DNA of 43,107 nucleotides from Clostridia bacterium (GCA_045644605.1 JAZRHB010000021.1:1-43107); one strand, 5' to 3'; shown: positions 4,050-22,259, counted from the stretch's first letter. Notes: generated from the sequence alone by a model not told the origin. Made by a program: numbers and translations.

Positions 4050-5687
<1,638 letters not shown>

Positions 5688-6555: not shown

Positions 6556-6589
6556 GTAAAATCACCCTTTTATGTAATTTAATAGTTTA

Positions 6590-6714: not shown

Positions 6715-7476
6715 ATGAGACTTAAATATATTGACATTGATAAAATAAAGGTGTGTCCTAATCAAACCAGAAGCTTTTTTGATACAACGGCTTTGCAGGG
6801 GCTTGCAGAGTCGATAAGGAAATATGGGATTATTGAGCCGATATGCGTAAGGCGGGTGCGGGGGAAATATGAGGTCATTTCAGGCGAAAGACGTATTCGT
6901 GCGGCAAGGATGGTGGGTATGAAGAAGGTGCCTGCGATTGTACGGTTTATTAAAAATGATGCGGCTCTTCCGTCGGCGCTGATTGGAAATACAGGGCGTC
7001 AGAGTATCAGTATTTTTGATGAGGGCGAGGCGTATAAAAAGATAGTTGAACGGTCTATTATTACCCGGGCGCAGCTTGCGGCACGGATAGGGATAAGTGA
7101 AGAAAGCATTTTAGCTAAAATCAAGGCACTTAACATTACAGATAAAGCAAAACGTATTGCAGGACGATATGGTCTTGATGAATGGCAGGTGACGGAGACA
7201 ATGAGAATACCTGACAGAAAAAGACAGGAGGAGCTGCTTGAAATTGCGGGGAGAGAAAGGCTTACTCCCGACAGAATAAGACGGATGATTGCAGATGAGG
7301 AAAACGAAAATAAGGAAAATGTGCCAAAAAGAAAACAGGTTGTTAAAAATGAAAGGATATATATTAATACAATAAGAAATACCGTTTCTATGATGAATGA
7401 GGCGGGCGGCATTGCAAAATGGGCGGAAAAAGAAGACGACGAATATATTTTATTTACGCTTGAAATTAAAAAGTGA
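6715..7476 (+). CDS. ParB/Spo0J/Noc-like protein (divergent)
   Basis: PNQTR, LAESIRKYGIIEPI, ISGERRIRA (ParB CTP-binding motif), HTH-like segment and Noc-like C-terminus (RIYINTIRNTVSMM...EDDEYILFTLEI); AAAGGAG RBS. Confidence 0.85.
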   Translation: MRLKYIDIDKIKVCPNQTRSFFDTTALQGLAESIRKYGIIEPICVRRVRGKYEVISGERRIRAARMVGMKKVPAIVRFIKNDAALPSALIGNTGRQSISIFDEGEAYKKIVERSIITRAQLAARIGISEESILAKIKALNITDKAKRIAGRYGLDEWQVTETMRIPDRKRQEELLEIAGRERLTPDRIRRMIADEENENKENVPKRKQVVKNERIYINTIRNTVSMMNEAGGIAKWAEKEDDEYILFTLEIKK

Positions 7477-8774
7477 CAGTAGTAAACCCAAAGTTTGGTG
7501 TATTATGGTATCATCAAAGGTTTTGGGGAGGGGATGAGTGTATTACATACAGCGAAAGACAAAAAGAGCTTATCGGGTTATGGAAAAGTGACGGACTTAA
7601 AAGAATCAATGTTCTTGAGGGGTCAGTCAGAAGCGGTAAAACATGGATAAGCCTTGTGGTGTGGGCGCTCTGGGTTGCCGGTATGCCTGAAGATGCAAGT
7701 TTTATTATGGTTGCAAAAACCATTTCCTCACTTCGGCGCAATGTTATTGAATTGCTTGAAGAGCTTGTTGGGGCAAAACAATTTAAATATTCACTTTCTA
7801 AAAAGGAAGGCCGCCTGTTTGGGCGGCTTGTTTATTTTGAGGGAGTAAGCGACTGCCGTGCTGAAAGCAAGATAAGGGGGATGAGCCTTTCGGGAGCGTA
7901 TTGCGATGAGATTACGCTTTTTAATGAGGACTTTTTTACTATGCTTTTATCGAGGTTAAGTAAGCCCGGTGCAAAGCTTATAGGAACAACAAATCCGGAT
8001 AATCCGAATCACTGGTTCAAGAAGAAATATCTTGATAGAAAAGGCGAACTTGACCTTCTTGATATGAAATTTCTGATTGATGATAATCCGTTTTTAAGCG
8101 ACGATTATGTGGAGAACTTAAAAAAAGAATATACGGGAGTATTTTATGACAGGTTTATTCTTGGACTCTGGAAAGCGGCGGAGGGGATTATATACCGCGA
8201 GTTTGCCGAAAACACAAAAGGTTTTTTTGCGAGTGGCGATGAGGACATAATGCTTGCATCAATTGGTGTGGATTTCGGTGGTAACAAATCGGCACACGCA
8301 TTTGTTTGTACGGGATTTACAAAGGGGTTTCGTGAAGTGGTTGTGCTTGAAGAGTTCTATATGAAAAAGGCGGTTTCACCGGAAGAGCTTGAAAAATGTT
8401 TTGTGGAGTTTGTCAGGATGTGCAAAGAAAAATATCCGGTTTACGATGTGTACTGCGACAGTGCCGAAACTACGCTTATTGCCGGGTTTGAGGTTGCGGC
8501 GGCACGGGCGGCACTTGCCGTTGACGTGCGAAAGGCAAAGAAAACAAAGGTTACGCAGAGAATAAGATTTTTCAATATGATTATGTCACAGAGGCGGTTT
8601 AAGATAAGACGGGAGCTTGTGCATCTTATTGATGCAATTTCGGGTGCATTATGGGATGATAAGAGTTCGGGTGACGTAAGGCTTGATGACGGCACGGTTA
8701 ATGTGGATTCGCTTGATGCAATGGAGTACAGTGTGGAAAGCTATATGGATGATATTTTAAGCCGAGTGGAATAG
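7473..8774 (+). CDS. terL: Phage terminase large subunit (PBSX/SPP1-like)
   Basis: Walker A EGSVRSGKT, Walker B GAYCDEITL, coupling motif GTTNPDNPNHW, nuclease IGVDFG / CDSAE / DSLDAMEY. The true start may be near 7542 (GGAGG at 7527). Confidence 0.93.
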   Translation: MTVVNPKFGVLWYHQRFWGGDECITYSERQKELIGLWKSDGLKRINVLEGSVRSGKTWISLVVWALWVAGMPEDASFIMVAKTISSLRRNVIELLEELVGAKQFKYSLSKKEGRLFGRLVYFEGVSDCRAESKIRGMSLSGAYCDEITLFNEDFFTMLLSRLSKPGAKLIGTTNPDNPNHWFKKKYLDRKGELDLLDMKFLIDDNPFLSDDYVENLKKEYTGVFYDRFILGLWKAAEGIIYREFAENTKGFFASGDEDIMLASIGVDFGGNKSAHAFVCTGFTKGFREVVVLEEFYMKKAVSPEELEKCFVEFVRMCKEKYPVYDVYCDSAETTLIAGFEVAAARAALAVDVRKAKKTKVTQRIRFFNMIMSQRRFKIRRELVHLIDAISGALWDDKSSGDVRLDDGTVNVDSLDAMEYSVESYMDDILSRVE

Positions 8775-8864
8775 AACACCACAAGGTTTAAAACCATAAA
8801 TTTTGCGTAATACGGCAGAAAATTCTACAAATATACGCGAAAATCAGTTTTAAGGAGGAATGAT

Positions 8865-10163
8865 ATGGATAGTATCAGAAGTTATTTGAAAAACGAGGGG
8901 TATAATGTAATTGACGACTCGTTCTACAGCCATATTTCAAAATGGCTGGGTTGGTATCAGGGAAAGGTAAGCAGTTTTCACGATTATACGCAGTATAACG
9001 GGAAAACGGTGGTGGCACGAAGCAGAGCTACGCTCAGTATGGCAAAAAAAGTGTGTGAGGACTGGGCAAATCTTATTATGAATGAGAAAGTGAAAATCTG
9101 TGTCGGAAATGAAACGGCACAAAGCTTTCTTGATTCGGTGCTTGATAAAAACAATTTCAAGGTAAGGGCAAACCGTCTTACAGAAATTTGTTTTGCGCTT
9201 GGCACGGGCGCGTTTGTGGAATATAAGGATGGCGATGATGTTGTAATTGATTACATACGCGCCGATATGATATATCCGCTTTCGTGGGAAAACGGACGGA
9301 TTACCGGATGCGCATTTGCAAGCGAAAGAATTGTGGATGAGACAGAATGTGTGTATATGAATATACATACGCAGGAAAACGGCAGATATATTGTAAGAAA
9401 CAAGCTGTTTAAAGCGGAATATTCGGGTCTTACCGAAATGGCTTTGCCGGAGGGTGTTTTAGGGGAATACGAAGCAGGAGATATGCCGATGTTCCAGATT
9501 ATTACGCCGAATATTGTGAATAATATTGACCTTGATAACCCAATGGGGATTTCGGTTTTTGCGGACAGCATTGACGTGCTGAAAGGGATTGACCTTGTGT
9601 ATGACAGCTATCAGAATGAGTTCCGTCTTGGTAAAAAAAGAATTATTGTGCCGGCGGGTATGGCACAGATTTCGCAGGGGTCAGGATTTAATCCGTTGTT
9701 TGATGATAATGATACCGAATTTTATGCAATGACGGATAAGTCGCTTACGGATTTGCGTGAAATAAATATGGAGCTTCGTGCCGAGCCGCACGAAAAGGCG
9801 TTGCAGAAAAACCTAAATCTTCTTGCCGCAAAGTGCGGACTTGGCAATGATAGATACTTAAGCACCCGTAATGAGATAAAAACTGCAACAGAGGTCATAA
9901 GTGAGAAATCCGAGCTTTATCAAAATCTTAAAAAACACGAGCTTGTGTTTGAAAAGGCGGCTATTGATATGGCAAGGGCGGTGCTCTACCTTGGCGGGTT
10001 TGACACTCAGGATGTTACTGTTTTGTTTGATGACAGTATTATTGAGGACAGCGGTGCTATTGCAGAGCGTGCAATGGAGGAGCTTAAGAATGGAATTATT
10101 GATAAAAAGCAGTATCTTATGAGAGTATACAATATGAGCGAAAATCAGGCGGAAAAGTATTGA
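8865..10163 (+). CDS. Phage portal protein (A118/SPP1 gp6-like)
   Basis: Follows terL; SMAKKVCEDWANLIMNE, NPMGISVFADS, EFRLGKKRIIVP, KTATEVISE; AAGGAGG RBS. Confidence 0.9.
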   Translation: MDSIRSYLKNEGYNVIDDSFYSHISKWLGWYQGKVSSFHDYTQYNGKTVVARSRATLSMAKKVCEDWANLIMNEKVKICVGNETAQSFLDSVLDKNNFKVRANRLTEICFALGTGAFVEYKDGDDVVIDYIRADMIYPLSWENGRITGCAFASERIVDETECVYMNIHTQENGRYIVRNKLFKAEYSGLTEMALPEGVLGEYEAGDMPMFQIITPNIVNNIDLDNPMGISVFADSIDVLKGIDLVYDSYQNEFRLGKKRIIVPAGMAQISQGSGFNPLFDDNDTEFYAMTDKSLTDLREINMELRAEPHEKALQKNLNLLAAKCGLGNDRYLSTRNEIKTATEVISEKSELYQNLKKHELVFEKAAIDMARAVLYLGGFDTQDVTVLFDDSIIEDSGAIAERAMEELKNGIIDKKQYLMRVYNMSENQAEKY

Positions 10164-10188
10164 CAATAATGTAGTGGTATGGTAAAAT
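10160..10188 (+). promoter_or_regulatory. SigA promoter of the inserted SGNH gene
   Basis: TTGACA(10160)-17-TAAAAT(10183) with extended TG at 10180; the portal TGA stop lies inside the -35. Confidence 0.8.
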
Positions 10189-10213
10189 GACCCTTGAAAG
10201 AGGAGGGCTACAT

Positions 10214-10942
10214 ATGAAGCTTCGTGAAAAATTTATGAATTATGACGCTATGGGTGATGACAGAAACCCTATTACAATTGCTTTCTTTGGCGACAGCGTG
10301 ACTCACGGTGCGTTTGAAGGTATTATGACACCGAAAGGATATGCGGATGTTTTTGATTATGACAATGTATATCATAATGTGCTGAAACAGATGTTTGCGG
10401 AAATTTATCCGAGTGTGCCTGTTAACATTATAAATGCAGGTAAATCGGGAGATAATGCAACACATTCGCTCTGGCACGGATTTCTTGAAAGATTTGTACT
10501 TTGCTACAATCCTGACCTTACGGTTGTTTGCTTTGCACTTAATGATAGCGGTGGCGGTCTTGAGCTTCTTGAAAGATATGAAAATTCACTTCGTGAGATT
10601 TTCATAAAGCTTAAAGAAGCCGGTGGCGAGGTTATCTTTATGACGCCGAATATGACGGCTACATATATTTCGCCAGATATAGATGAAGATATGCGTCCAA
10701 GAGCAGAAAAAAATACAAGACGCTTTGAAACTGGAATACTTGAAAAATATGTTGAAGCAGCTAAAAAAGTGGCGGCAGAGTGCGGTGTTCCCGTGTGTGA
10801 CTGCTTTGCAAAATGGAAGAAGCTGTATCAGGCCGGGGTTGATGTTACAAGCTTGCTTGCTAATAAAATGAATCACCCTACAAGACCGATGCACATGATG
10901 TTCGCACATTCGCTTTTTGAAATGATTATGTTTGAAGACTAA
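10214..10942 (+). CDS. SGNH/GDSL hydrolase inside the head module
   Basis: FFGDSVTHG, INAGKSG, FALND, NHP; AGGAGG RBS before ATG 10214; own promoter and terminator. Confidence 0.9.
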   Translation: MKLREKFMNYDAMGDDRNPITIAFFGDSVTHGAFEGIMTPKGYADVFDYDNVYHNVLKQMFAEIYPSVPVNIINAGKSGDNATHSLWHGFLERFVLCYNPDLTVVCFALNDSGGGLELLERYENSLREIFIKLKEAGGEVIFMTPNMTATYISPDIDEDMRPRAEKNTRRFETGILEKYVEAAKKVAAECGVPVCDCFAKWKKLYQAGVDVTSLLANKMNHPTRPMHMMFAHSLFEMIMFED

Positions 10943-10956
10943 AAAACTTAATAATT

Positions 10957-10984
10957 AAGGACACTTAAAAGGTGTCCTTTTTTT
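10957..10984 (+). terminator. Intrinsic terminator
   Basis: AAGGACACT-TAAAA-GGTGTCCTT followed by a T run. Confidence 0.8.
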
Positions 10985-10985
10985 G

Positions 10986-11085
10986 TGCCCCGGGCATGGC
11001 GTTAAAACTGCCTTTTATATAGATTCTCCTGCAGTATGAGATATAAACTGCTGACCTTTTTTGTGGCGAAACCACATATAAAAAC
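10986..11085 (+). ncRNA. Candidate structured cis-RNA (tandem H-type pseudoknots) upstream of the scaffold gene
   Basis: Two units with compensatory stems (TGCC/GGCG + GGGCA/TGCCT; TCTC/GAGA + GCAGT/ACTGC), then a GTGG-CGAAA-CCAC hairpin before the RBS. Confidence 0.5.
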
Positions 11086-11099
11086 TAAAAGGAGGAAAT

Positions 11100-11651
11100 A
11101 TGGAATTTTTAAAAGAGGCACTGGGGGATGAGCTTTTTGGTGCGGTGGAAGAAAGGCTTGCGGGAAATGAAAATATCAAGCTTGCCAATCTGGCGGGCGG
11201 CGGATATGTAAGCCGCGAAAAATATACCGCGCTTGAAAATGAAAACGGTGCCAATAAAAAAATGCTTGAGGAGCAAAGCGGAAGACTTGCGGCGTATGAC
11301 GAAATGAAATTGGCATATGATGCGCTTAAAGAAAAATATGATGCGGACACTGCAGGGTTTGCACATAAGATGGCGGAAACGGGTAAATCACATGCGATTG
11401 ACATGGCACTTATGAGCCGCAGGGCTAAAAATATCAAAGCGGCGAGGGCACTTCTTGATATGGATAAAATTGAATTTAAGGACGGAGTGCTTTCCGGATT
11501 TGATGAGCAGATGGAAAGGGTTTTTGCCGATAATGAATATCTTTTCGGGGACGAAATAAAGCTTGCCGGAGGTATGAGGCATTTGGGCAAAAATCAGGCT
11601 TCTCAAGGCTTTTTACAGACAATTTATGAAAATCAGGCTAAAAGAAATTAG
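11100..11651 (+). CDS. Capsid scaffolding protein (Phage GP20 family)
   Basis: Coiled-coil with AKNIKAARALLDMDKI...LSGFDEQM...NEYLF signature; directly upstream of the capsid gene. Confidence 0.85.
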   Translation: MEFLKEALGDELFGAVEERLAGNENIKLANLAGGGYVSREKYTALENENGANKKMLEEQSGRLAAYDEMKLAYDALKEKYDADTAGFAHKMAETGKSHAIDMALMSRRAKNIKAARALLDMDKIEFKDGVLSGFDEQMERVFADNEYLFGDEIKLAGGMRHLGKNQASQGFLQTIYENQAKRN

Positions 11652-11660
11652 GAGGAAAAA

Positions 11661-12806
11661 ATGAGTTATTTAAAAGATGAATTAACAGGTTTTGTGCCTG
11701 CGGAGCAGGCAAAAGAAATTCTTGCAGGTATTGTAAGGGGATCAAGCGTTCTTCGCCTTTCTAAAGTAGAGGCAATGAATTCAGATAAAAAGAAATTCAA
11801 CGTTCTTGTTGACGGACCGGGTGCTTACTGGGTTGGCGAAGGTCAGAGAATTGAAACATCGGGTGCATCATGGATTCATCCCGAAATTGAGGCTAAAAAG
11901 CTTGCGGTTATTATTCCGGTTACAAAAGAAAAGCTGAACGATTCCACAATCAACGTGTTTGAAGAACTCAAACCGCAGATTCAGGAAGTGTTCTACAAAG
12001 CAATTGACAAGGCTTGTCTTTTCGGCGAAAATTCTCCATTTGCAACTAACGTTATGGCGGCGGCGGAAGGCTCTGGCATGGTTATAAAATCAAACAATGA
12101 TATTGACCTTGCAATTTCCGATACTATGGAAGCGGTTGAAGCTAACGGATACGAAGTTACAGGTTTTGCCGGTCATATCGGTGTTAAAAATGCACTCCGC
12201 AAATTAAGAGATGCAAATGACGCTCCGGTTTACATTGAAGGTATCAATGAAAAAGAACTTTATTCACAGCCGATTGAATTCGTTCGTAACGGTTCATGGG
12301 ATAAAAATAAAGCTGATATTATCGGCGGTGACTGGAAATACAGCATTGTTGGTATGCGTTCGGGTATCGAATTTGAAGTTCTTACTGAAGCAACTCTTCA
12401 GGGAACACTTGATGCCGACGGCAAACCGCTTTCTCTTGCAGAACAGGATATGATTGCTATTAAAGCTACTATGAGAATTGGCTATCTTGTTATTAAAGAC
12501 GATGCGTTTGCTGCATATAAATATGCAGCACCTGAAATAAGACCGCTTAATGTAACATCAACAGAAGGAAGCGAAGAAGGAACTACTGTTATTGAAGTAA
12601 CTCCGGATGCTTCTATGGGTAACAGCCTTGTTTACAAGGTTGGTGCATCAGCAACAGAAGTTTCCTACGATGAAGATTTATCTTCGTGGGATGTATTTGA
12701 CGGCAGAGAAATTTCTGCTACCGAAGGTCAGTACATTACTGTTGCGGAAACCGATACCCTTGGTCTTGCTAAAAAAGCCGGCAGCTGCGTTGTAGTTTGC
12801 AAATAA
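11661..12806 (+). CDS. Major capsid protein (HK97 fold) with C-terminal beta-rich extension
   Basis: GAYWVGEGQRIETS, AKKLAVIIPVTKEKLNDS, AIDKACLFG, SLAEQDMIAIKATMRIG; about 90 aa extra C-terminal domain. Confidence 0.92.
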   Translation: MSYLKDELTGFVPAEQAKEILAGIVRGSSVLRLSKVEAMNSDKKKFNVLVDGPGAYWVGEGQRIETSGASWIHPEIEAKKLAVIIPVTKEKLNDSTINVFEELKPQIQEVFYKAIDKACLFGENSPFATNVMAAAEGSGMVIKSNNDIDLAISDTMEAVEANGYEVTGFAGHIGVKNALRKLRDANDAPVYIEGINEKELYSQPIEFVRNGSWDKNKADIIGGDWKYSIVGMRSGIEFEVLTEATLQGTLDADGKPLSLAEQDMIAIKATMRIGYLVIKDDAFAAYKYAAPEIRPLNVTSTEGSEEGTTVIEVTPDASMGNSLVYKVGASATEVSYDEDLSSWDVFDGREISATEGQYITVAETDTLGLAKKAGSCVVVCK

Positions 12807-12818
12807 GCAGGTGGTAAT

Positions 12819-13151
12819 ATGCAGTATGTGGATTTTACATATTACAGCGAAGCCTTTGGGGGAGATTTAATCCCCCAGAGGCTTTTTGCCAGGTATGAGC
12901 TCAAGGCAAGAAGCTTTATTGATAATATTACGTTTGGGAATATTGAAGTCCCATGTGATGATAAAATAAAAACGGCTGTTTGTGAAATGTGTGAAGCATT
13001 CTACTGTGATGACGAAAAAAAGAACATTCATTCCGAGGAGCATGACGGATACGGTATTGTTTACGATGAAGATGTTCTTGAAGAAAAGCTTGCAAAAATT
13101 GCCGAAATTTATCTTGCGGCTACAGGATATCTGTACGGAGGGATTTATTAA
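12819..13151 (+). CDS. Head-tail adaptor (gp15-like)
   Basis: YVDFTYY...ARSFIDNITF...IKTAVCEM...YLAATGYLYGGI pattern and position after the capsid gene. Confidence 0.75.
   Translation: MQYVDFTYYSEAFGGDLIPQRLFARYELKARSFIDNITFGNIEVPCDDKIKTAVCEMCEAFYCDDEKKNIHSEEHDGYGIVYDEDVLEEKLAKIAEIYLAATGYLYGGIY
12851..12887 (+). terminator. Intragenic terminator-like hairpin just after the capsid gene
   Basis: AGCCTTTGGGGGA / TCCCCCAGAGGCT 13-bp stem (one G-U) followed by TTTT. Confidence 0.55.
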
Positions 13152-13441
13152 TGATTCTTCGCGGGGATATTACGGTATATGATAAAGATAAAAGGATGCA
13201 GTTTTGCGGTGTTCGTATATGCGACAGTACAAGTCTTGAGATGAAAGAACGCGGCGTGGTAAAATCGGGGAGCGTTATCATAAGGATTTTTGAAGATGGT
13301 GTAGTCATTCCGGAAGGAGCAAGGCTTGTGATTGGACACTGCGGGGACGAGGTTTGTCCCCCGCAGGCATTTTTTATTACAGCTGTTAAGAAAAATAAAG
13401 GTATTGGAAAAGCACATTATAAAGTGGTTGCCGAAAGGTAA
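13151..13441 (+). CDS. Putative head-closure protein
   Basis: Small beta-rich ORF (DITVY...IIRIF...HYKVVA) coupled to the adaptor; assigned mainly by synteny. Confidence 0.55.
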   Translation: MILRGDITVYDKDKRMQFCGVRICDSTSLEMKERGVVKSGSVIIRIFEDGVVIPEGARLVIGHCGDEVCPPQAFFITAVKKNKGIGKAHYKVVAER

Positions 13442-13843
13442 GTGATATTTTTGATTACAGAAAAAATAGTTGAAATAGTAAACGAATTTGATTGCATTAA
13501 AAATCGCTCTTGCGAGGTGGATTTTCTTGAAAATGACGGTATCAGTATAGTGCCGGTTTCAGATGATGAAATAAGGAAATATGTAAGCGGCGACGCACTC
13601 CGTCAGTTTGTATTTAAGCTTGTAGTAAATACGGATTATCTTAAAGAAAATGTAAAAGAAATTTACGGCTTTTTTGAACAGTTCAAATCGGAACTGGAAA
13701 GTCATAAGGCAGTGGATATAGATGATAATCTACAGGCACTTAATTTTTCGCAGGAGGGCGAGTTTGAGGCAGAGCATTTAAGCGCAGCTCAGATGAAATA
13801 CGCAGTGAAATGCTCTTTGAATTATTATAAAAGGGGAGAATAG
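13442..13843 (+). CDS. Putative tail terminator / tail completion protein
   Basis: VDFLE...SIVPV...RKYVSGDALRQFVF...KYAVKCSLNY; immediately before the tail tube gene. Confidence 0.65.
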   Translation: MIFLITEKIVEIVNEFDCIKNRSCEVDFLENDGISIVPVSDDEIRKYVSGDALRQFVFKLVVNTDYLKENVKEIYGFFEQFKSELESHKAVDIDDNLQALNFSQEGEFEAEHLSAAQMKYAVKCSLNYYKRGE

Positions 13844-13847
13844 ATAA

Positions 13848-14327
13848 ATGAATATTGTTAAAAGAAGCAAGGTACTTCCGTTTTATGCAGTAGATGACGG
13901 ACAGTTCGTAAGAATGACCGGATTTACACAGGCAAGCGTAAACAGAAGTCCGATTGAATATTCACGTCAGTATATTGATGAAGAATTCAAGAGAAATGAC
14001 GTTGTGGGTTATGATACTGCAATGTCTTTTTCTTTTGATTTGTTTGAAAACAATGCCGTACACAGCGATATTGCAAACATTGCTGAAAATGAGTTTGTTG
14101 GCGGCGATGCAATAAGAGAAATTGTCAGCGTTGATTTAAGCAGCGCTGATGAAAACGGCAGCTGCAAAGCAGTTAAAAGAAGTTTTTCCGTTATGGTTGA
14201 AAACGAAGGCGATGCAGCGGAAGCATACACATACAGCGGAAGCTTTAAAGCGTCCGGAGAAAAAGTGTTTGGCAGGGCAGTTTCGGAAGATAACTGGCAG
14301 ACCTGTACATTCGTACCCGGAGAATGA
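13848..14327 (+). CDS. Major tail (tube) protein
   Basis: RMTGFT...PIEYSRQYIDE...DVVGYD...YTYSGSFKASG...TFVP, typical of clostridial siphophage tail tubes; synteny. Confidence 0.75.
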   Translation: MNIVKRSKVLPFYAVDDGQFVRMTGFTQASVNRSPIEYSRQYIDEEFKRNDVVGYDTAMSFSFDLFENNAVHSDIANIAENEFVGGDAIREIVSVDLSSADENGSCKAVKRSFSVMVENEGDAAEAYTYSGSFKASGEKVFGRAVSEDNWQTCTFVPGE

Positions 14328-14881: not shown

Positions 14882-14905
14882 GAGGCGATTGAAATAAAAA
14901 TTGAT

Positions 14906-16066
14906 TTGAATGTTAAAAAGATATTATCCGATTATCTGGACTCAATTAAAGGGTCCATTGTAAATATAGGGAAAGAGAAAATCGGGAAAGCGCTTTTTGG
15001 GGGCGTGCGGGAAGCAGCTGTACCAAACAGCGGAGTTTTGAAAAAGCTTGCCGCAAATATGGTGAAAGCTATTGATGCAAAACATAAAGCGGGAGTTATC
15101 AGCGAGCAGGAATACTATAAAAAACTTGAAAATATACGTGATAAATATTTGAATAAGGGCAGTGTTGAATGGTGGAAATATACTGCAAAGATTGGTGAAT
15201 ACGAAAGTAAAGTGCTGGAGGAAAATGCCGAGGCGGTGGCTATTGCATATGAAGAGATGGCTGGCAGCGCGATGGAGAATGTAAGTAATCTGGCAGAGGA
15301 AGCAGAAAAAACGTTTGAAAATATTCTCAAACAGAAAGAAGAATTTTCGGAAAAGCTGTCCGATTACGGCGGACTTTATTCCAAAGGTACGGTTACGATT
15401 AAAAATGCCGGACCGGGAATGCAGCTTATTGATGGTTCGTGGATTGACCAGAAAGATATTGTTTTTGATTATGTGAAGTTTGCTGATTTTGAAAAACAGG
15501 TGAAGGTGCTTGAAGAGTATAAGGACGCACTACTTGGTATCAAAGAACGCGGAAATGTGCCATACGAGATATTTGATTCCATAAGAGAGCTTTCTGTTGA
15601 GGATGGTCTTGATGTTGCAAAGGCTCTTCTCAAAATGCCGGAGGGAGAGTTTAAGAAATATGTTGACGGATATCTGACTAAAAAACGGCTTGAAAGCGAA
15701 ATTACAAATGAAATTTTTAATAAAGATATCGAAAATGCAAAAACATATTATACAGAAACTACGAATGACCTTCTGGAAGAACTTTCAAAATCTTTTGAAA
15801 AAGTGCCCGAAAGTTTTGCTCTCGGAGGAATAGATTCTGCAAAAGCCTTTGGTGAGGGGTTTATGCAGAGTATCGACGGCATTATTGATGCCATCAAGAT
15901 TGAATTTGCAGAAAAATTAGGGGAAATAAGCGGACAGATATCAGTAGGATACGGCAACCCGAATGTATATAATTCGAACTATAATTTTTACGGAAGCGGG
16001 CAAACCGTAAGTCAACAGCTTGAACAGGCAAGAATTGCCGATACAGTGAACAGGTTAAGGGGGTAA
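14906..16066 (+). CDS. Short tape measure-like protein
   Basis: Helical/coiled-coil ORF between chaperone and Dit, ending in TMP-like GxxxAxxFGEG and NSNYNFY segments; start may be at 14888 or 14894 (AGGAGG at 14880). Confidence 0.65.
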   Translation: MNVKKILSDYLDSIKGSIVNIGKEKIGKALFGGVREAAVPNSGVLKKLAANMVKAIDAKHKAGVISEQEYYKKLENIRDKYLNKGSVEWWKYTAKIGEYESKVLEENAEAVAIAYEEMAGSAMENVSNLAEEAEKTFENILKQKEEFSEKLSDYGGLYSKGTVTIKNAGPGMQLIDGSWIDQKDIVFDYVKFADFEKQVKVLEEYKDALLGIKERGNVPYEIFDSIRELSVEDGLDVAKALLKMPEGEFKKYVDGYLTKKRLESEITNEIFNKDIENAKTYYTETTNDLLEELSKSFEKVPESFALGGIDSAKAFGEGFMQSIDGIIDAIKIEFAEKLGEISGQISVGYGNPNVYNSNYNFYGSGQTVSQQLEQARIADTVNRLRG

Positions 16067-16073
16067 TCGTGGA

Positions 16074-16919
16074 ATGTATATGTATTATAAAAATGATGCC
16101 GGAAAAATAGATTTCCGGTTTGGTGGGGATTACCCTGTAAGAGTTACGGATATTGACGGGCTGTATCCCCTTGAAAGGACGTTCAATACAGTAGCTTATG
16201 CCGATATTGACGGAGTTGACAGTGTATCTTCTTCTGTAGGGGGAAGAACGGTTACTGTTGGCGGAGATATAAAAATTTCAAACAAACAGTTTTTACGGGA
16301 TATTCTTAAGGTGCTTGACAAACCCGGGGAATTGTATATGGATTTCGGTGAGAAAAAACGAAAGCTTGTTTGCCACAATGCACATTTTACGCCGGGTGAA
16401 CGTAACAGCAAATATATGAGATTTGTTATTGTCTTTTCTTCCGATATGCCGTATTTTTACGGATTTGATGAGGAGACGGAATATATAAGAAAAAGGCAGA
16501 ATACAATAGGTTCAAACTTTATACTGCCGTGTGTTTTTACATCGAGCAACTCGGAAAGTGATATTATTGTAAATGGTGATGCCGAAAGCGAACCGGTTTT
16601 TGAAATAAAATGTATAAAAGAAACTACAATGCCGCCGGAAGAAGCCGGAATTACTGTGCTTAACGAAACAACCGGAGAAAGTATTAAGCTTTGTGTATAT
16701 CTTGTGCAGGATGAAGTTATTGAAATTGATGTTGAAAACAGAAAAATCACAAGCAGTGTGCGTGGGAATATGCTTAACTATATTTCCGAAGATACGTTCT
16801 TGCACAGATTCAAACTTATGCAGGGGGCAAATCATATAAAAGCTATCACTGATAATACAAATGAACAGATAAATGTTCTGTGCAGATACAGATGCCGGTA
16901 TATTGAGGGGGTTTATTGA
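16074..16919 (+). CDS. Distal tail protein (Dit)
   Basis: VTDIDGL, RTVTVGG, FSSDMPYFY, IVNGDAESEPVFEI, FKLMQGANHI, typical of the Sipho_tail family. Confidence 0.8.
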   Translation: MYMYYKNDAGKIDFRFGGDYPVRVTDIDGLYPLERTFNTVAYADIDGVDSVSSSVGGRTVTVGGDIKISNKQFLRDILKVLDKPGELYMDFGEKKRKLVCHNAHFTPGERNSKYMRFVIVFSSDMPYFYGFDEETEYIRKRQNTIGSNFILPCVFTSSNSESDIIVNGDAESEPVFEIKCIKETTMPPEEAGITVLNETTGESIKLCVYLVQDEVIEIDVENRKITSSVRGNMLNYISEDTFLHRFKLMQGANHIKAITDNTNEQINVLCRYRCRYIEGVY

Positions 16920-17920
16920 TGGAAGATATAAGATTATACGATTTTGATTTTAATCTTCTGTGTATTGAAAACCGTATAATATCAAGCAACTGGCATCTGA
17001 AAAACAATGATATAGGAAGCTTTGAAATGCATTTTACACCGGATAGTGAGGTTTGTGAAACTATTCAGGAAAGCTTTGACATAAAAAACAACAAGCTTAT
17101 TGTTGTTGTGCAAGGGAACAAACAGGGTATTCTGACGGGGTTTCGCGTTAAAGATGAGATTGCTATTTATGGTAAGACATGCAATTTTTTGCTTTCAAAA
17201 AGATTGGTGCCGAAATTTACCACCAATGGTCTTGATATAAAAAAAGATGTGGAAAGCATTTCGCGGTATTGCGTGGAAAATGCGTTTTCTGATGTGGAGA
17301 ATTTTGTGATTGGTGATGCTCGGGGCTTTGACGAAATATATGTGGATGATAAGCATTTCTGGAGAAATGTATATAATCCGGCAAGCGAAGTTGTGCACGA
17401 CCTTATGGATATCGGTGGCGGCGGTCATTTTGTTTTATTTGATATAAAGAATAAAAAATGGGTTTTTAATACAACAAAAAACACGGTCAATCCAATGATT
17501 ATTTCTGTGCAGATGAAAAATGCGTATGGTATTGAGAATACAAAAATGATTGGTGATTACTGCAGCTGCGGATGGTATGAGATGCAGCAGAAAATGGAAG
17601 ATGGTGTGCGCCCGGATTCCGTATGGACTTATATAGAAAAAGATGAAAAAACCGGAATTTACAGGTGGGAAGGAAAACTTGACGGATTATACGAAAGCGA
17701 GGCAATATCAGACCTTGAAAATAAAAAAATTACTGATGATACAGAGCTTTCTCTTCGTAAAATATATTTTGAAAAAGATTTTCAGCTTGGAGATATTATC
17801 ACGCTTCAGTATAAGTTTGGAAGATATGAAAAAACAGTACAAAAAATTATAGACGGAGTATATCTTACATTTGAAAACAATAACATATCGGAAAAACCGG
17901 TTTTTAAGGAGGTTAAATAA
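16919..17920 (+). CDS. Tal / baseplate hub protein (ReqiPepy6 Gp37-like)
   Basis: IRLYDFDFNLL...IGSFEMH...FLLSKRLV...YFEKDFQLGDIIT; follows Dit. Confidence 0.75.
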   Translation: MEDIRLYDFDFNLLCIENRIISSNWHLKNNDIGSFEMHFTPDSEVCETIQESFDIKNNKLIVVVQGNKQGILTGFRVKDEIAIYGKTCNFLLSKRLVPKFTTNGLDIKKDVESISRYCVENAFSDVENFVIGDARGFDEIYVDDKHFWRNVYNPASEVVHDLMDIGGGGHFVLFDIKNKKWVFNTTKNTVNPMIISVQMKNAYGIENTKMIGDYCSCGWYEMQQKMEDGVRPDSVWTYIEKDEKTGIYRWEGKLDGLYESEAISDLENKKITDDTELSLRKIYFEKDFQLGDIITLQYKFGRYEKTVQKIIDGVYLTFENNNISEKPVFKEVK

Positions 17921-18735
17921 TGGGATTTAGTGTTGATTTTATAGATAATAACTCCATTTCGGCAGAGTCACTTAATGAAATTCTTGCCGAGGTGGGAGAT
18001 GACAGTGTAAGCGCAAGCAGTGAATTTGTTAACGAAAGTTTGTTTTATACTGACAAGCTGAACTGCATAAGAAGCGAAATTGTGACGGGTGGAATACGCT
18101 CCGGCTGCGAGGCGGCTCTTTGTGAGACAGGTGTTATCATAGGTGAAGGCTTATGCTTTTTTGACAGCGGTATGAGAATGAAAATTGATGCAGAGGGAAT
18201 TTCACTTACTGTTTCGGCAGACAAAGAAAATTTTGTTTATTTATATGCATCAACAAATTTAAACATTGCCACTGCGGTAGTAACCACGGAGAAAAAAGAA
18301 GGAAACGAATATGTGCCGGTATGCAGGATTGATGCAGATGGAGTTCTTTATGATGAAAGAGTGTGGTGCTGTTCGAAAATTCCGATGATGAATTCGAGAT
18401 TTGTGCAAAAAGAGACATTTACACTTTCAAACAGCGCATCGGGGACGGTTCTTGTGAAACAGGTACCGCTTGTATGTAAAGCATATGCATACATAATCGT
18501 TATGGCTAAAGGAAGTATAGCTGTTTATTCGCGTGATACGGGGAAATATACATATATCATTACCACCGGGGTATACGGTGCGGATCGTAAGGTTGATATG
18601 GACTATTTTAAAATAGGATATGACAGCGGTAATAACTATTACGGAAACGTGCATTTTGAGGAAGCAAGCTCCTGTATTAACATATTTATCAGAGGAACAC
18701 AGTCTAAAAAAGAAGTTGAGATGATTGTGTTATAA
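17920..18735 (+). CDS. Putative baseplate/tail structural protein
   Basis: AAGGAGG RBS, beta-rich, position after Tal; C-terminal part is Tyr/Gly-rich. Confidence 0.55.
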   Translation: MGFSVDFIDNNSISAESLNEILAEVGDDSVSASSEFVNESLFYTDKLNCIRSEIVTGGIRSGCEAALCETGVIIGEGLCFFDSGMRMKIDAEGISLTVSADKENFVYLYASTNLNIATAVVTTEKKEGNEYVPVCRIDADGVLYDERVWCCSKIPMMNSRFVQKETFTLSNSASGTVLVKQVPLVCKAYAYIIVMAKGSIAVYSRDTGKYTYIITTGVYGADRKVDMDYFKIGYDSGNNYYGNVHFEEASSCINIFIRGTQSKKEVEMIVL

Positions 18736-18744
18736 GGAGGCAGT

Positions 18745-19245
18745 ATGATTGAGTATAGAATAAAAATAGATACAAAAAGTGAAAAAATTTATTACAGTGA
18801 TTTTATATTTACAACAGGAGACGTGCGTGCATATAAATTTGTATTTGATTTTGTGGATTGTGATACGGAAAACTGCAGTATTGGTGTAAAAGCAAAACGT
18901 GCGGACGGCACTGTTGTAATTGCAAAAAGCAGTGATTGCAAAAGCTTTGTACTGCCCGGAAACATGTACGCTGTAGCGGGAGAGGTTTTGTTTGAAATTG
19001 CTCTTTATGATGCGGCGGGCGGTTGCATCACAACCAAGGTTGTTGCGGCAACTGTGCGAAAAGGGTTTGGTGAAGAAGGACTTGCATCGGACGACAGATA
19101 TCCGGTGCTGACATCTATGATTAATGAAGTGAACGCACTTAAATTTTCTGTTATTGATGCTATTACGGAATTGGGCGATATTTCTGCCGCACTTGATGAA
19201 ATTATAGCTATGCAAAACAGTCTGATTGGCGGTGAGTCTGTATGA
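18745..19245 (+). CDS. BppU-like upper baseplate protein
   Basis: FTTGD...VKAKRADG...YAVAGEVLFEIALYD...YPVLTSMI followed by coiled-coil. Confidence 0.65.
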   Translation: MIEYRIKIDTKSEKIYYSDFIFTTGDVRAYKFVFDFVDCDTENCSIGVKAKRADGTVVIAKSSDCKSFVLPGNMYAVAGEVLFEIALYDAAGGCITTKVVAATVRKGFGEEGLASDDRYPVLTSMINEVNALKFSVIDAITELGDISAALDEIIAMQNSLIGGESV

Positions 19246-20030
19246 GCATTGCAAATAAGCTGACGATGGTTGCTGATAATGAGAAAAAAGTATATGATGC
19301 AGGGCAAGGGGCAGGTTATATTGACGGCTTTAATGACGGTTCGGCAAACGGAAAAAAGCTTGGCAAAGAAGAAGGAAAAAAAGAACAATATAACTTGTTT
19401 TGGAACAAGTTTCAACGATGGGATGAGGCAACGCAAACAACAAAAAGAGAAGACTACAGACGTGCTTTTGCTTATTGGTATTTAGCTGATGAAATATTTA
19501 AACCAAAATATGATGTTGTTCCTGTTGGTGATGCATCTTATATGTTTTGGAATTTCAGAACATGGGCTGATTTAACTAACATTACAAATATGGACGGCAA
19601 AGTTATAAACTTTGATTTTTCGAAAGTAACAAAATTTGCTTATATGTTTGATAATTCGTTGATTAAAAATGCGGGGACTGTAGATTGTAGTTCAACTAAT
19701 TCTTTAGACAATGCTTTTTTTAACGCAACAAGCCTTAAAACTATAGAAAGGCTTATACTGCACGAGAGGATTACAAGTTATAGTTATTGTTTTGCCAACA
19801 CGTCACTACTACAGGACATAACGGTTGAAGGAACTATTGCCGGAACAGGTATATTTCTTTCTGCACATACAGGATTAACACACGATAGCTTGATGAGCTT
19901 TATTAATGCTTTAAAAGATTATTCAGATACTGCTACAACAAAAACTATAACATTTGGTGCAACGAATTTAGCTAAATTAACCGATAGCGAAAAAGCGATA
20001 GCGACACAGAAAGGATGGACACTGGCGTGA
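19242..20030 (+). CDS. Putative receptor-binding/tail fibre protein with BspA/DUF285-like repeats
   Basis: Repeated YMF/NAF/YCF-type units (DFSKVTKFAYMFDNS, DCSSTNSLDNAFFNA) and the phage-type C-terminus LTDSEKAIATQKGWTLA. Confidence 0.6.
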   Translation: MSIANKLTMVADNEKKVYDAGQGAGYIDGFNDGSANGKKLGKEEGKKEQYNLFWNKFQRWDEATQTTKREDYRRAFAYWYLADEIFKPKYDVVPVGDASYMFWNFRTWADLTNITNMDGKVINFDFSKVTKFAYMFDNSLIKNAGTVDCSSTNSLDNAFFNATSLKTIERLILHERITSYSYCFANTSLLQDITVEGTIAGTGIFLSAHTGLTHDSLMSFINALKDYSDTATTKTITFGATNLAKLTDSEKAIATQKGWTLA

Positions 20031-20206
20031 TTGAAACGACAATTGAATTAAGAAAACTTACTGCTGCAGAGGGGATGACTTTAACAAATGGTGAAGAGTT
20101 TGGAAAAGAAATATTTCTTGGTAAAAATGACAGTGCTGATAACTGGTACGAAATAACAGATGAAGAAGCAGAAAACCTGCAGAAAGAGCAACCAATGGAG
20201 GAATAA
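20027..20206 (+). CDS. Small phage protein (possible fibre chaperone)
   Basis: GTGA overlap with the upstream stop; KLTAAEGMTLTNGE...IFLGKNDSADNWYEITDEEAE pattern often follows fibre genes. Confidence 0.6.
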   Translation: MIETTIELRKLTAAEGMTLTNGEEFGKEIFLGKNDSADNWYEITDEEAENLQKEQPMEE

Positions 20207-20207
20207 A

Positions 20208-20528
20208 ATGGAAGCTATAATAATGGCGGCAGGAATTCCATCTGCAATAACGGGGCTTCTTGTGTGGTGGGTAAAAAAGAAAATTGATAAGCAGGATGAA
20301 GAGCGTCAGGAACGCGAAAAAAATCAGGAACGGCTGATGATACTTATTATGCAGACGGGCAGGGCAACAAGTGTCCTGTCCGAAGCCACCGCCCGTGCGG
20401 TACAACGCATCCCCGATGCGCATTGCAATGGCGATATGAAAAAGGCACTTGATGATGCCAAACGAATTCAGACAGAAGAAAAGGATTTTCTTATAAACAA
20501 AGGGATTAAACATATTTTTGAGGAGTGA
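20208..20528 (+). CDS. Single-TM membrane protein of the lysis module (holin-like/accessory)
   Basis: GGAGG RBS; N-terminal TM ([16 protein letters not shown]), coiled-coil and HCNGDM motif. Confidence 0.65.
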
Positions 20529-20533
20529 TTGGG

Positions 20534-20716
20534 ATGATGTGGATAAAAGCAGCAGGTATAAGGGCGGTTAAAACAGTGGCGCAGACGGCTATTGCAACAA
20601 TAGGAACGGCGGCTGCAATGGGTGATGTGAACTGGATTATGGTAGGAAGTGCAGCAATTCTTGCAGGTATATTGTCACTTCTTACATCTGTGGCAGGGCT
20701 GCCGGAAGTGAAATGA
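20534..20716 (+). CDS. Holin (phage r1t family)
   Basis: [22 protein letters not shown]...DVNW...[17 protein letters not shown]. Confidence 0.88.
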
Positions 20717-20717
20717 T

Positions 20718-21404
20718 ATGGATATAATTAAAGATTTTGTTCCGGCACATAAATACGGGCTGAAATGTCCGTATTCTATGGTGCCGGAATTTTTTGTAAT
20801 ACATAACACATCGGGAGATGCAAGCGCAAAAAACGAGATTGCATATATGAAGAATAATAACTTGCAGACAAGCTTTCATTTTGCTGTGGATGACGTTGGA
20901 GTTCGCCAGGGCATCCCGATTGACCGCAATGCATTCCATGCAGGCGACGGTATGAAAGGTAAGGGTAACCGCAAGGGGATTGGCGTTGAGATATGCTATT
21001 CCAAATCAGGCGGCGAGAGGTTTGAAAAAGCGGAGGAAAAAGCGGCGGAATTTGTGGCGGAAAAGCTGATAGAATTCAGATGGGGAATTGATAAAGTAAA
21101 AAAGCATCAGGATTTTTCGGGTAAATACTGTCCGCACCGCACACTTGACTTTGGCTGGGAAAGATTTTTGAAAAAGGTGGAATTATATATGGATTTACTT
21201 AAAAGGGTTGAAGCTCTTGAAAAAAAGACGGATAAATTTATCTATGCGTGGGTGGATGATAATATGCCGGACTGGGCAAAGCCTACGGTAACAAAGCTTA
21301 TGAATAAAGGGATTCTGAAAGGCGACGAAGAAGGCAAACTGAACCTTGATGAAACAATGCTACGTATGCTTGTTATAAATGACAGGGCGGGATTGTATGA
21401 TTAA
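20718..21404 (+). CDS. Endolysin, N-acetylmuramoyl-L-alanine amidase (Amidase_2, XlyA-like) with SLH-like C-terminus
   Basis: IHNT, SFHFAVDD, AFHAGDG, IGVEIC, KHQDFSGKYCP; C-terminal PDWAKPTVTKLMNKGILKG. Confidence 0.92.
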   Translation: MDIIKDFVPAHKYGLKCPYSMVPEFFVIHNTSGDASAKNEIAYMKNNNLQTSFHFAVDDVGVRQGIPIDRNAFHAGDGMKGKGNRKGIGVEICYSKSGGERFEKAEEKAAEFVAEKLIEFRWGIDKVKKHQDFSGKYCPHRTLDFGWERFLKKVELYMDLLKRVEALEKKTDKFIYAWVDDNMPDWAKPTVTKLMNKGILKGDEEGKLNLDETMLRMLVINDRAGLYD

Positions 21405-21924
21405 AAATAAATATGTGTCCTTCAGCGACAAGTGGAAACACCGTGTGTCGGTTGTTGATATTAAAAGGTGCTTGCCTTGTAAAGAAAAGCATGGTAAAAT
21501 ATATGGTATAGAGGAGTTTGTTTTTGATGCTCCGCCCGACCATTTATTCTGCCGCTGCAGAATTGAAAAAATGCGAGCAGTGATTGCAGGAAATGCAACG
21601 GAAAAAGGGGTGGACGGAGCGGATTGGTATCTGAAATATTACGGAATATTGCCGTATTATTATATTTCATATGACTATGCCGAAAAAGCAGGGTGGCGAT
21701 CTGGAAAGCCAAACTTACATTTAAAATGTCCGGGAAAGATGATAACAAGAGGACGATATAGAAACGACAACGGACACTTACCCTTAAGCCCCGGACGAAT
21801 ATGGTATGAGGCGGATATTGACTATGAAAGCGGAAGGAGAAATTCAAAGCGCATAGTATATTCCAATGACGGGCTGATTTTTGTTACATATGATCATTAC
21901 CATACATTTGTTGAAATAAAATAG
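21397..21924 (+). CDS. MuF-motif-barnase fusion (putative ribonuclease toxin)
   Basis: N-terminal CLPC..HGKIY....PPDHLFCRC (MuF/phage head morphogenesis C-terminal motif); remainder aligns by eye to barnase (YL..Y..LP..YI, GW, NL, PGK, WYEADIDY.SG.RNSKRIVYSNDGLIF.T.DHY.TF). Confidence 0.88.
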   Translation: MIKNKYVSFSDKWKHRVSVVDIKRCLPCKEKHGKIYGIEEFVFDAPPDHLFCRCRIEKMRAVIAGNATEKGVDGADWYLKYYGILPYYYISYDYAEKAGWRSGKPNLHLKCPGKMITRGRYRNDNGHLPLSPGRIWYEADIDYESGRRNSKRIVYSNDGLIFVTYDHYHTFVEIK

Positions 21925-21935
21925 GGGGTAGCAAC

Positions 21936-22259
21936 GTGAAAGAACATGATGAAAGCTATTATGAGTTTAAAGAAATAAAGGAAAATCCTATAATAATTGA
22001 TTTTTCTTCGTGTAGACCGGAGGAAATACATACAATGCTGAAAGAAAAATTCGGATTTCCGGAATATTACGGGGAAAACTTAAGTGCATTGTGGGATTGC
22101 CTTGATGGACTATTTTACGGTGAAGGAGAATATAAGGTGAAGATATACGGATACAATTCTCTTGATGAAGATGTTAAGGAATATTGCGGGAAAATACTAA
22201 AAATATTTGATGATGTACACAAACGAACACCAAACATAACCTTTGAAATTATTTCGTAA
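21936..22259 (+). CDS. Barstar family ribonuclease inhibitor (immunity protein)
   Basis: LKEKFGFPEYYGENLSALWDCL matches barstar LPEYYGENLDALWDCL; directly downstream of the barnase-like gene. Confidence 0.93.
   Translation: MKEHDESYYEFKEIKENPIIIDFSSCRPEEIHTMLKEKFGFPEYYGENLSALWDCLDGLFYGEGEYKVKIYGYNSLDEDVKEYCGKILKIFDDVHKRTPNITFEIIS

Follow-up and report, generated by a model that had tools for sequence, protein, structure and literature searches.

To our knowledge, gene transfer agents (GTAs) have been studied almost only in Alphaproteobacteria. RcGTA is encoded by a siphovirus-derived head-tail cluster of ~15 kb that includes TerL, a portal, an HK97-type capsid, a short tail, and holin/endolysin lysis genes. 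It has no integrase or replication genes, is inherited vertically under purifying selection, and has its genes spread over several loci. PBSX of Bacillus subtilis is a fixed, conserved, and non-infectious particle with its own terminase, head, tail, and lysis genes, and it possesses a contractile tail and its own regulators. Here we describe an element of ~15.5 kb at positions 6715–22259 of a 43,107-nt stretch of Clostridia bacterium DNA (GCA_045644605.1 JAZRHB010000021.1:1-43107). This whole stretch, called the window below, is contig C21 of a 1.36-Mb, 94%-complete metagenome-assembled genome (MAG; G000). The element, which is known from its genes alone, is probably a chromosomally fixed and vertically inherited descendant of a siphovirus that resembles a GTA (a viriform).

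The siphovirus-type lineage to which this element belongs appears not to have been described before, and GTA-like elements in gut Clostridia are already known from work published in 2026. The accessible text of one report (PMC12946183) describes GTA-like packaging of 4.6–8.9-kb host fragments in Ruminococcaceae, Oscillospiraceae, and Christensenellaceae. FpGTA of Faecalibacterium, presented there as podovirus-like with a TerS-like (small terminase) gene and two operons located 125 kb apart (I for packaging/head, II for baseplate/lysis), was the first gene cluster found for a GTA-like particle in gut Clostridia; according to the same text, the genes behind packaging in other families were not found. 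The available part of a 2026 preprint (10.64898/2026.07.08.737213) puts forward a core cluster of 14 kb, along with a lysis cluster, for Coprocola. As far as these two sources can be consulted, they make outdated the statement of an initial annotation of the window that such systems are not characterized in Clostridia. The literature on GTAs in Clostridia, Bacillota, and Firmicutes, searched without its supplementary data, yielded no prior description of the siphovirus-type lineage.

The element was identified through open reading frame (ORF) calls, Pfam and PHROGs profiles, and predicted folds. It constitutes a phage-type late region of 23 tightly packed genes, all on the + strand, and the tight coupling recognized at first inspection is borne out by 20 of the 22 gene junctions, which overlap or are no more than 24 nt apart. 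Of the two wider gaps, the one from terL to the portal gene contains a 97-bp repeat and the other the terminator-like end of an SGNH cassette. Strong ribosome-binding sites, also claimed initially, are present only in part: a Shine-Dalgarno core precedes 9 of the 23 first-in-frame starts, a low count explained in part by longest frames that reach upstream of the true starts. Host genes lie within 160 nt of the element on the left (uvrC, pfk, groES, groEL, and an SGNH hydrolase gene) and immediately on the right (htpG, then the polysaccharide-type genes DegT and sugar transferase), in keeping with the annotated direct host flanks. The boundaries are as follows.

5932–6555, − strand: host SGNH/GDSL hydrolase, left boundary (Pfam Lipase_GDSL_2, E 1.1e-23; the G002 copy is 92% identical and directly upstream of parB)
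6556–6714, + strand: upstream region, putatively regulatory, with a conserved extended -10 promoter-like site (6612–6639) and a conserved block in the G000/G002 alignment
22322–24115, + strand: host htpG, right boundary (HSP90, E 2.4e-49; start placed at ~22322 from alignment with G001 and G002; promoter-like site 22262–22290, terminator-like site 24122–24143)

The element is located at the same junctions in all three species (3/3) of the window's genus (g1, in family f1), which are represented by G000, G001, and G002. In G002, the genes from SGNH-parB-terL through o96 are on contig C14, the tail and lysis genes from distal tail to amidase are on C33, and barstar-htpG is on C51. In G001, contig C13 carries o262 (the last distal tail gene) through the toxin gene, three barstar genes, and htpG. 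Divergence between G000 and G002 was calculated by a simple Nei-Gojobori estimate. Synonymous divergence (dS) of element genes is 0.36–0.94 (terL 0.73, portal 0.72, major capsid 0.39, amidase 0.60), compared with 0.55–0.80 for flanking host genes (uvrC 0.73, pfk 0.55, SGNH 0.80, htpG 0.64), with the slow groESL left aside. The ratio of nonsynonymous to synonymous divergence (dN/dS) is 0.04–0.15 for ParB, TerL, portal, scaffold, capsid, connectors, and lysis genes, and 0.26–0.37 for the distal tail genes. Between G000 and G002, no indels were found in the head genes and no frameshifts or internal stops were found, the only stops being upstream of the likely starts of TerL, htpG, and holin. The flank-like dS together with the low dN/dS implies that the truncated, integrase-less state arose before the two species diverged and has since been maintained by selection. 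As in GTAs and other viriforms, the structural genes are resident, vertically inherited, and under purifying selection.

Synteny and dN/dS had been proposed as checks on host maintenance, and both came out in its favor, with the same junctions in the sister species and ratios of 0.04–0.37 without internal stops. Same junctions, host-like dS, low dN/dS, and the trees described below agree in depicting an element that is host-maintained and neither a mobile nor a decaying prophage. Public sequencing runs were also consulted: 18 carry part of the window, none of them half or more of its words, no RNA run was listed, and contigs of four, with no depth, were compared. Two contig joints that skip ~11 kb (6587 to 17530; 6693 to 17717) have sides of only 21 letters and were therefore not counted as empty sites, nor were the parts without coverage.

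A different history would make the locus the remnant of a defective prophage, deprived of its left arm (integrase, repressor, and replication genes), that is decaying neutrally and appears intact only through recent truncation. Such a remnant would be expected to resemble the window in some respects, including one contiguous locus in phage-typical order, lysis genes and a moron at the end, a rearrangement nearby (groESL is inverted between G000 and G002), and a repeat inserted between terL and the portal gene. We nevertheless regard this history as highly improbable. Because dS to the sister species is ~0.4–0.9 and equals that of the flanks, the truncation must be older than the species split, and over that time dN/dS has remained at 0.04–0.15 with no frameshifts or internal stops. 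The same is true in the sister genus g3, and dispersed yet intact pieces of the gene set exist in four further genera.

No genes for integration, excision, or autonomous replication are present, again as in GTAs and other viriforms: no such family is among the Pfam and PHROG matches in 6715–22259, where the ParB-like gene is the sole one of DNA-metabolism type. No recombinase was found on the window's contig, and elsewhere in the genome tyrosine recombinases are matched only on C52 and C44 and serine recombinases on C50. Only short imperfect repeats, and no att-like flanking repeat, were found around the element, and no recognizable TerS was found among its genes. The initial annotation had likewise seen no integrase, replication gene, recognizable small terminase, or att repeat. 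The features of an intact temperate prophage (integrase, att sites, and a lysogeny/replication module beside the structural genes) are thus not seen. The window contains no tRNA genes (0) and no match to any Rfam family, the 1.36-Mb genome contains no second copy of any element protein, and the GC content and skew of the element region are not distinct from those of its flanks. Profile searches of the element found no phage-type regulator, and functions for excision, replication, and phage self-control appear to have been lost. Capsid-forming phage-inducible chromosomal islands (PICIs) have their own integrase and replication genes and lack tail genes. A PICI or other phage satellite of this kind is not what the window contains, given that there is no integrase or replication gene and a full tail module is present.

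Relatives of the element in sister genera are dispersed. In a family survey of 25 genomes, which constitute the whole order (phmmer on called ORFs, Pfam on neighbors), portal relatives that are 57–63% identical occur in 12/25 genomes and Dit relatives in 13/25. Portal/Dit relatives are present in all genomes of g3 (6/6) and g6 (2/2), and no portal was found among the 11 genomes of g4, g5, and g7 (0/11). In g3, of which five species were mapped, a cluster from portal to o271 is located beside rnfC/rnfD, extends to amidase/holin in 3/5, and has the same flanking genes in all five. The g3 TerL gene is solitary and on a different contig, where its neighbors are an amino-acid ABC transporter gene and hrcA-grpE-dnaK; in G004 it is at least 81 kb from the cluster. 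These lone TerL genes are intact, with products of 408–416 aa that are 58–63% identical to the window's (L017:8998-10227 in G004, and L019, L023, L016, and L021). In g6 and g8, the set is split between two contigs, one with TerL-portal (in G007 with IMPDH and citrate synthase after it) and the other with scaffold-to-tail. In g2, the gene set is in three pieces, next to AraC/SLH, GH38, and Spo0A/RhaA genes. The g3 pieces have dN/dS of 0.04–0.30, with dS saturated there, and protein identities rank G010 > G024 > G015 for most cluster genes and host flanks alike. A mobile phage is excluded for a gene set whose TerL, portal, and remaining parts must be expressed from different sites on the chromosome. 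The resemblance to the multi-locus RcGTA that the initial annotation invoked therefore applies to g2, g3, g6, and g8, and not to the window's single locus.

This dispersal bears directly on whether the element might still be a mobile prophage or satellite, with its integrase and replication functions acting in trans from a helper phage or distant gene and with renewed insertion at one and the same site in every species. Related compact clusters do appear as 'viral' contigs in IMG/VR (L130 and L134; 12.8–15 kb), capsid modules have been exchanged with phages, and the portals of family f37 are unexpectedly close to the window's. However, there are no att repeats and no recombinase on the contig, dS is the same as in the flanks, and all carriers belong to one host clade. 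In g3, g6, g8, and g2, housekeeping genes spanning at least tens of kilobases separate TerL and portal from the rest, an arrangement that could not be packaged or excised as a unit. Continued mobility accordingly strikes us as scarcely credible.

Phylogenetic trees carry the fixed and vertically inherited reading beyond the genus. Genera are monophyletic in UvrC, portal, TerL, and Tal trees, and the nested order within g3 (G015 outermost, G004 with G010) and within f37 is the same or compatible across all four. The 11 carriers tested form one UvrC clade (98 by the Shimodaira-Hasegawa-like approximate likelihood ratio test, SH-aLRT), and 5 non-carriers of g4, g5, and g7 are outside it. Because the carriers are one host clade, one acquisition in the ancestor of g1, g2, g3, g6, and g8 suffices. 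In the TerL tree, 11 rows from f1 are split from 4 rows from f37 and f62 (97 SH-aLRT), and an approximately unbiased (AU) test did not reject f1 monophyly for the portal (p 0.645). Agreement of the TerL tree with the host, another check suggested at the outset, holds at the genus level and within genera; the portal tree behaves likewise, but in one version of it f37 is located inside f1.

Among 399 evenly sampled genomes of the class, searched for more distant relatives, portals at E ≤1e-50 are present in 34, including 9/14 from f1, 12/15 from f3, and 8 matching genomes from f37. Families f37 and f62 have compact 11–14-kb clusters that are flanked by housekeeping genes and have no visible integrase. 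The flanks of the f37 cluster (PBP transpeptidase and ETF) are identical in two species of one genus. Small ORFs located just upstream of TerL in f37 (L098:10461-10859 and L102:9751-10122) match DUF1492 with E 6e-5 and 3e-4, near the Pfam cut-off. As this domain has a sigma-70 region-4-like fold, the matches would suggest that f37 relatives keep a phage late-gene activator that is absent from the window element. Family f3 has a different TerL type and a P22-type coat. In one f3 genome, G067 (L106:2626-5830), a related head-tail cluster is ~6.5 kb from htpG and a DegT-like gene, which are also found downstream of the window element; this may be chance or an old shared neighborhood. In the same genome, Dit directly follows the tail tube gene (L106:16268-17601), with no chaperone or tape measure detected between them.

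Phages themselves are more remote. The best TerL among 50,697 phage records is 51.7% identical, capsids are 31–39% identical, and the best IMG/VR portal is 57% identical, so neither a close cultured phage nor the near-identical complete phage whose existence would have spoken against domestication was found in these collections. All of the best IMG/VR portals (35/35) fall outside the clade of f1 and f37 (94 SH-aLRT). Real phage relatives (L131, L133, and L135; contigs of 26–40 kb) carry a gene of 370–516 aa behind the portal, and in L131 the tape-measure position is occupied by a protein of 753 aa, whereas tape-measure homologs in the related elements are 170–456 aa. From this comparison, the elements appear to have lost the post-portal gene and shrunk the tape measure.

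Several observations weigh against a fixed and strictly vertical history. In the window the element is a single locus whose anatomy alone resembles a recently truncated prophage. All genomes are MAGs, the dS values come from a simple Nei-Gojobori estimate and are saturated in g3, and the host tree is built from one gene (UvrC). Completeness is 61% for G001 and 74% for G002, whose assemblies do not include the middle of the element (~13.4–18.0 kb); it was not found there with DNA, Dit, or tube queries. Since these MAGs are incomplete and their contigs end inside the element, the missing middle says nothing about absence. The 97-bp repeat between terL and the portal gene, along with the uncertain TerL start, could impair expression in G000. 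Portals of f37 are 60–63% identical to the window's, like those of its own family, although UvrC is 42–43% identical versus 51–57%, and f37 nests inside f1 in a 52-row portal tree; descent at depth is therefore not purely vertical. The capsid also differs between genera, with the window's type found only in g1, g6, and g8 and other families in g3, f37, and f3, which indicates that modules were exchanged with phages or between lineages at depth. Even with these points, domestication into a host-maintained particle is a reading that the comparative evidence supports well.

All of the genes from TerL to amidase that were initially claimed are present on the + strand at the annotated places, as judged from ORFs, Pfam, PHROGs, and folds, with the receptor-binding protein (RBP) assigned by position only. 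The element retains terminase, portal, scaffold, capsid, connectors, tube, chaperone, short tape measure, baseplate, receptor binder, holin, and amidase. Its packaging and head genes, with two insertions among them, are as follows.

6715–7476, + strand: ParB-like protein, with ParB N-terminal and helix-turn-helix (HTH) domains (ParB_N E 5.3e-25; HTH_ParB E 7e-8; PHROG ParB-like partition protein)
7473–8774, + strand: large terminase TerL, ATPase and nuclease (Terminase_3/6N; phrog_2; dN/dS 0.05)
8754–8851, no strand assigned: partial copy of a genome-wide short repeat between terL and the portal gene (copies in G000, G001, and G002)
8865–10163, + strand: SPP1-type portal (SPP1_portal E 4e-25; phrog_533 E 1.3e-101; dN/dS 0.04)
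10187–10942, + strand: SGNH/GDSL hydrolase cassette inside the head module (Lipase_GDSL_2 E 1.2e-17)
11100–11651, + strand: scaffolding protein (Phage_scaffold E 8.9e-25)
11661–12806, + strand: HK97-type major capsid protein with Ig-like C-terminal domain (Phage_capsid E 1.7e-33; S-l_SbsC_C E 1.2e-15; dN/dS 0.05)
12819–13151, + strand: head-tail adaptor, a connector gene (PHROGs)
13151–13441, + strand: 96-aa connector protein, o96 (by position among the three connector genes)
13442–13843, + strand: tail completion protein, a connector gene (PHROGs)

Matches in the connector region (12819–13843) are to phrog_541 (E 2.9e-20) and phrog_3266 (E 5e-11), with a weak DUF6751 match below cut-off. The ParB-like gene occupies the usual position of a small terminase gene, and we infer a packaging role for its product. 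The protein contains what we take to be a GERR box and is 70% identical in G002 with dN/dS 0.13. It has no match in the other genera searched and was found only in the window's genus.

TerL has the Walker A sequence GSVRSGKT, and residues D145, E146, T172–N174, D267, D329, and D401/405/412/415 are invariant in 15/15 relatives. We take these residues to be the Walker B, coupling motif, and nuclease aspartates, which agrees with the intact ATPase and nuclease motifs reported initially. The start of TerL is uncertain because the long frame has two stop codons within its first 18 codons in G002, and the true start is probably near codon 20–25. In the window, the frame (7473–7545) reads open from a GTG overlapping the stop codon of parB, and no in-frame ATG, GTG, or TTG is present between that stretch and Walker A. 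A strong GGAGG-type site precedes an in-frame ATT, making an unusual start codon possible.

Besides this one, G000 has 9 near-full and 5 partial copies of the repeat that follows terL, which is also present many times in G001 and G002. It is missing at this position in G002 and in contigs of runs X2 and X5, and it matches no Rfam family. Further copies are located on G000 contigs C72, C105, C94, C2, C8, C77, C106, C68, and C46, and the repeat is ~100 nt or more. These other copies are longer at one end and have there a common start codon and short open frame on the opposite strand. The repeat could be an element like a miniature inverted-repeat transposable element (MITE) or a small toxin-type gene.

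The tail and lysis genes follow the head genes on the same strand.

13848–14327, + strand: tail tube (major tail) protein, 159 aa (AlphaFold pLDDT 82.6; Foldseek PDB E down to 1.5e-6)
14324–14881, + strand: Gp15-type tail assembly chaperone (Phage_Gp15 E 3.3e-36)
14906–16066, + strand: putative short tape measure, 386 aa (by position between chaperone and Dit; no family match)
16074–16919, + strand: Dit, distal tail protein (SPP1_Dit, Sipho_tail; PHROG Dit)
16916–17920, + strand: Tal, Gp37-like (Sipho_Gp37 E 1.6e-13)
17920–20030, + strand: three distal tail genes, 271, 166, and 262 aa (by position; the last, 19242–20030, is the candidate RBP)
20015–21404, + strand: lysis cassette, with small (membrane-type) proteins of 63 aa and 122 aa, holin, and amidase (phrog_9428; dN/dS 0.07–0.13)
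20525–20716, + strand: holin (phrog_443 E 1.3e-14)
20718–21404, + strand: amidase (Amidase_2 E 1.9e-16)

The top Foldseek PDB matches of the tail tube are the tubes of 80alpha, NF5, lambda, monocin, and RcGTA. Profile searches of the element revealed no contractile sheath family, and the tape measure, Dit, and Tal are of siphovirus type. A tail-only particle (an F-type tailocin, monocin-like) is not indicated, as TerL, portal, scaffold, and capsid are present with dN/dS of 0.04–0.15. The candidate RBP of 262 aa is only 27% identical in G002, versus 65–78% for its neighbors, and its region is replaced in one contig of run X2.

Genus-specific additions to the element appear to be the ParB-like gene, the internal SGNH cassette, and a toxin pair. 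The SGNH cassette is a moron-like insertion that has its own promoter-like (10160–10188) and terminator-like (10957–10979) sites and is skipped in one contig of run X2. It is not detectably related to the SGNH gene upstream of the element. The toxin pair is located at the end of the cluster.

21379–21924, + strand: mini-MuF (C-terminal Cys-rich core only) plus barnase-type RNase, 181 aa (Ribonuclease E 5.5e-10)
21936–22259, + strand: Barstar immunity protein, directly downstream of the toxin gene (Barstar E 3.1e-17, 62.7 bits)

The barnase domain scores 40.1 bits against a Pfam cut-off of 24, and Phage_Mu_F scores 25.1 bits, below its 29.6 cut-off, with only profile positions 67–111 matched. 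At E ≤1e-5, the toxin has 948 relatives of 99–317 aa with the NCBI name 'phage head morphogenesis protein', and precomputed PF04233+PF00545 annotations are on most of those among the 120 matches listed. In IMG/VR this architecture is rare, with 4 loci found by an alignment-based scan and 1 by a single-protein scan. On one IMG/VR contig (L126), mini-MuF/barnase follows a 484-aa portal-sized ORF, presumed and not verified to be a portal. By its domain arrangement, the gene is polymorphic-toxin-like. The pair was found only in g1 (G003 has a barstar-like gene), and elements of g3, g6, g8, f37, and f62 are without it. Barstar copy number is 1 in G000 and 3, in tandem, in G001, and a tandem-duplication joint is present in run X5.

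These genes raise the prospect that the domesticated particle is a weapon, either a PBSX-like killer or a vehicle for barnase delivery into barstar-less cells, with any packaged DNA irrelevant or undelivered. The toxin-immunity pair at the cluster end and its variable barstar copy number would suit this role, as would the MuF core, which we take to be a domain that places proteins in SPP1-type heads. PBSX is also cited as tailocin-like in the accessible text of PMC12946183. Against this, the restriction of the pair to g1 means that it is not the reason for conservation of the particle genes, and the location of the toxin gene after the lysis genes is a typical moron position. Moreover, TerL has invariant ATPase and nuclease residues and is under strong constraint even where it stands alone, which points to selection on DNA packaging. 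On balance, a weapon in which DNA plays no part seems rather unlikely.

Returning to the GTA-like reading, the particle is a candidate for GTA function (packaging of host DNA) and for toxin delivery, and the following mechanism is proposed. The conserved promoter upstream of the ParB-like gene would drive the cluster in a fraction of cells. TerL would then fill capsids by a headful mechanism, and in this genus the ParB-like DNA-binding protein may replace a classical small terminase. Headful filling without a classical small terminase would, we propose, favor the element's own DNA little or not at all. Holin and amidase would lyse the producer cell, and the released particles might use the fast-evolving distal tail protein of 262 aa to attach to related cells before ejecting their contents. 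By the rule of ~1.5 Å per tape-measure residue, the tail would be ~58 nm long. The mini-MuF/barnase-barstar genes would be a genus-specific add-on, either a particle-borne toxin or a moron-type competition or addiction module.

A bolder proposal can be put forward, one that we consider doubtful. It would have the element represent an old siphovirus-derived GTA lineage from the ancestor of the five-genus clade of small-genome gut Clostridia, with related compact elements in at least two further families, and this gene set could be the one behind the packaging reported outside Faecalibacterium. The MuF-anchored barnase would serve kin discrimination via barstar, and a ParB clamp would replace the small terminase. 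If this were true, gene delivery would be safe only for kin with a matching barstar.

Two observations concern the neighboring chaperone genes. The groES-groEL segment (window 3748–5687 versus L013:4529-6465) is inverted between G000 and G002, whereas the orientation of uvrC-pfk and SGNH-parB is kept. No inverted repeats were found flanking this inversion, which could be a real event or a MAG assembly artefact. The chaperone neighbors also suggested a heat-shock (HrcA) link. This candidate is not supported because the sole CIRCE site (3693–3719, 1 mismatch) is upstream of groES and none is near the element or htpG.

The element provides a concrete siphovirus-type gene set with strong comparative evidence for domestication, namely a fixed site, host-paced divergence, and purifying selection. 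Its relatives record stepwise dispersal of TerL and portal from the cluster, as well as tape measure shrinkage and loss of the MuF gene relative to phage kin. The series of one-, two-, and three-locus arrangements is a natural model for a prophage turning into a host organ. TerL, portal, and Tal can serve as markers for such elements in metagenomes, in which they are classed as viral or overlooked by prophage callers. The locus also makes it possible to test whether particle production and kin recognition are connected with a polymorphic RNase toxin.

Compared with known systems, the toxin gene resembles the MuF toxin family of temperate phages (described in PMC5576092, in the part available) in its variable C-terminal toxin (barnase), its immunity gene directly downstream, and an N terminus that may be MuF-derived. 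Relative to the toxins in that account, the window gene keeps only the MuF C-terminal core (181 aa in total, below the Pfam cut-off) and follows the lysis genes rather than the portal, and its carrier is not a temperate phage. Like PBSX, the element is a chromosomally fixed, phage-like gene set of a Gram-positive host that could act on neighbors, but profile searches revealed neither a sheath gene nor a regulator. FpGTA, as far as its description is accessible, shares the gut Clostridia setting, TerL, portal, scaffold, and capsid in one operon, the baseplate, RBP, holin, and endolysin, near-universal presence in the host genus, and independence from any other prophage. The window element is set apart from that description by its tube, chaperone, tape measure, Dit, and Tal, its single locus, and the lack of a recognizable TerS.

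The element also parallels RcGTA (Rhodogtaviriformidae) in cluster size, siphovirus-derived head-tail gene set, short tail, holin/endolysin lysis, lack of integrase and replication genes, and vertical inheritance under purifying selection, with multi-locus organization shared only by the sister genera. The predicted fold of the window's tail tube matches the RcGTA tube, among others. In contrast to RcGTA, the window has an SPP1-type portal, a scaffold without protease, a ParB-like gene in place of a TerS-like gene, lysis genes within the cluster, and a toxin-immunity pair. The element, as read from its genes, would represent an independent domestication in Clostridia.

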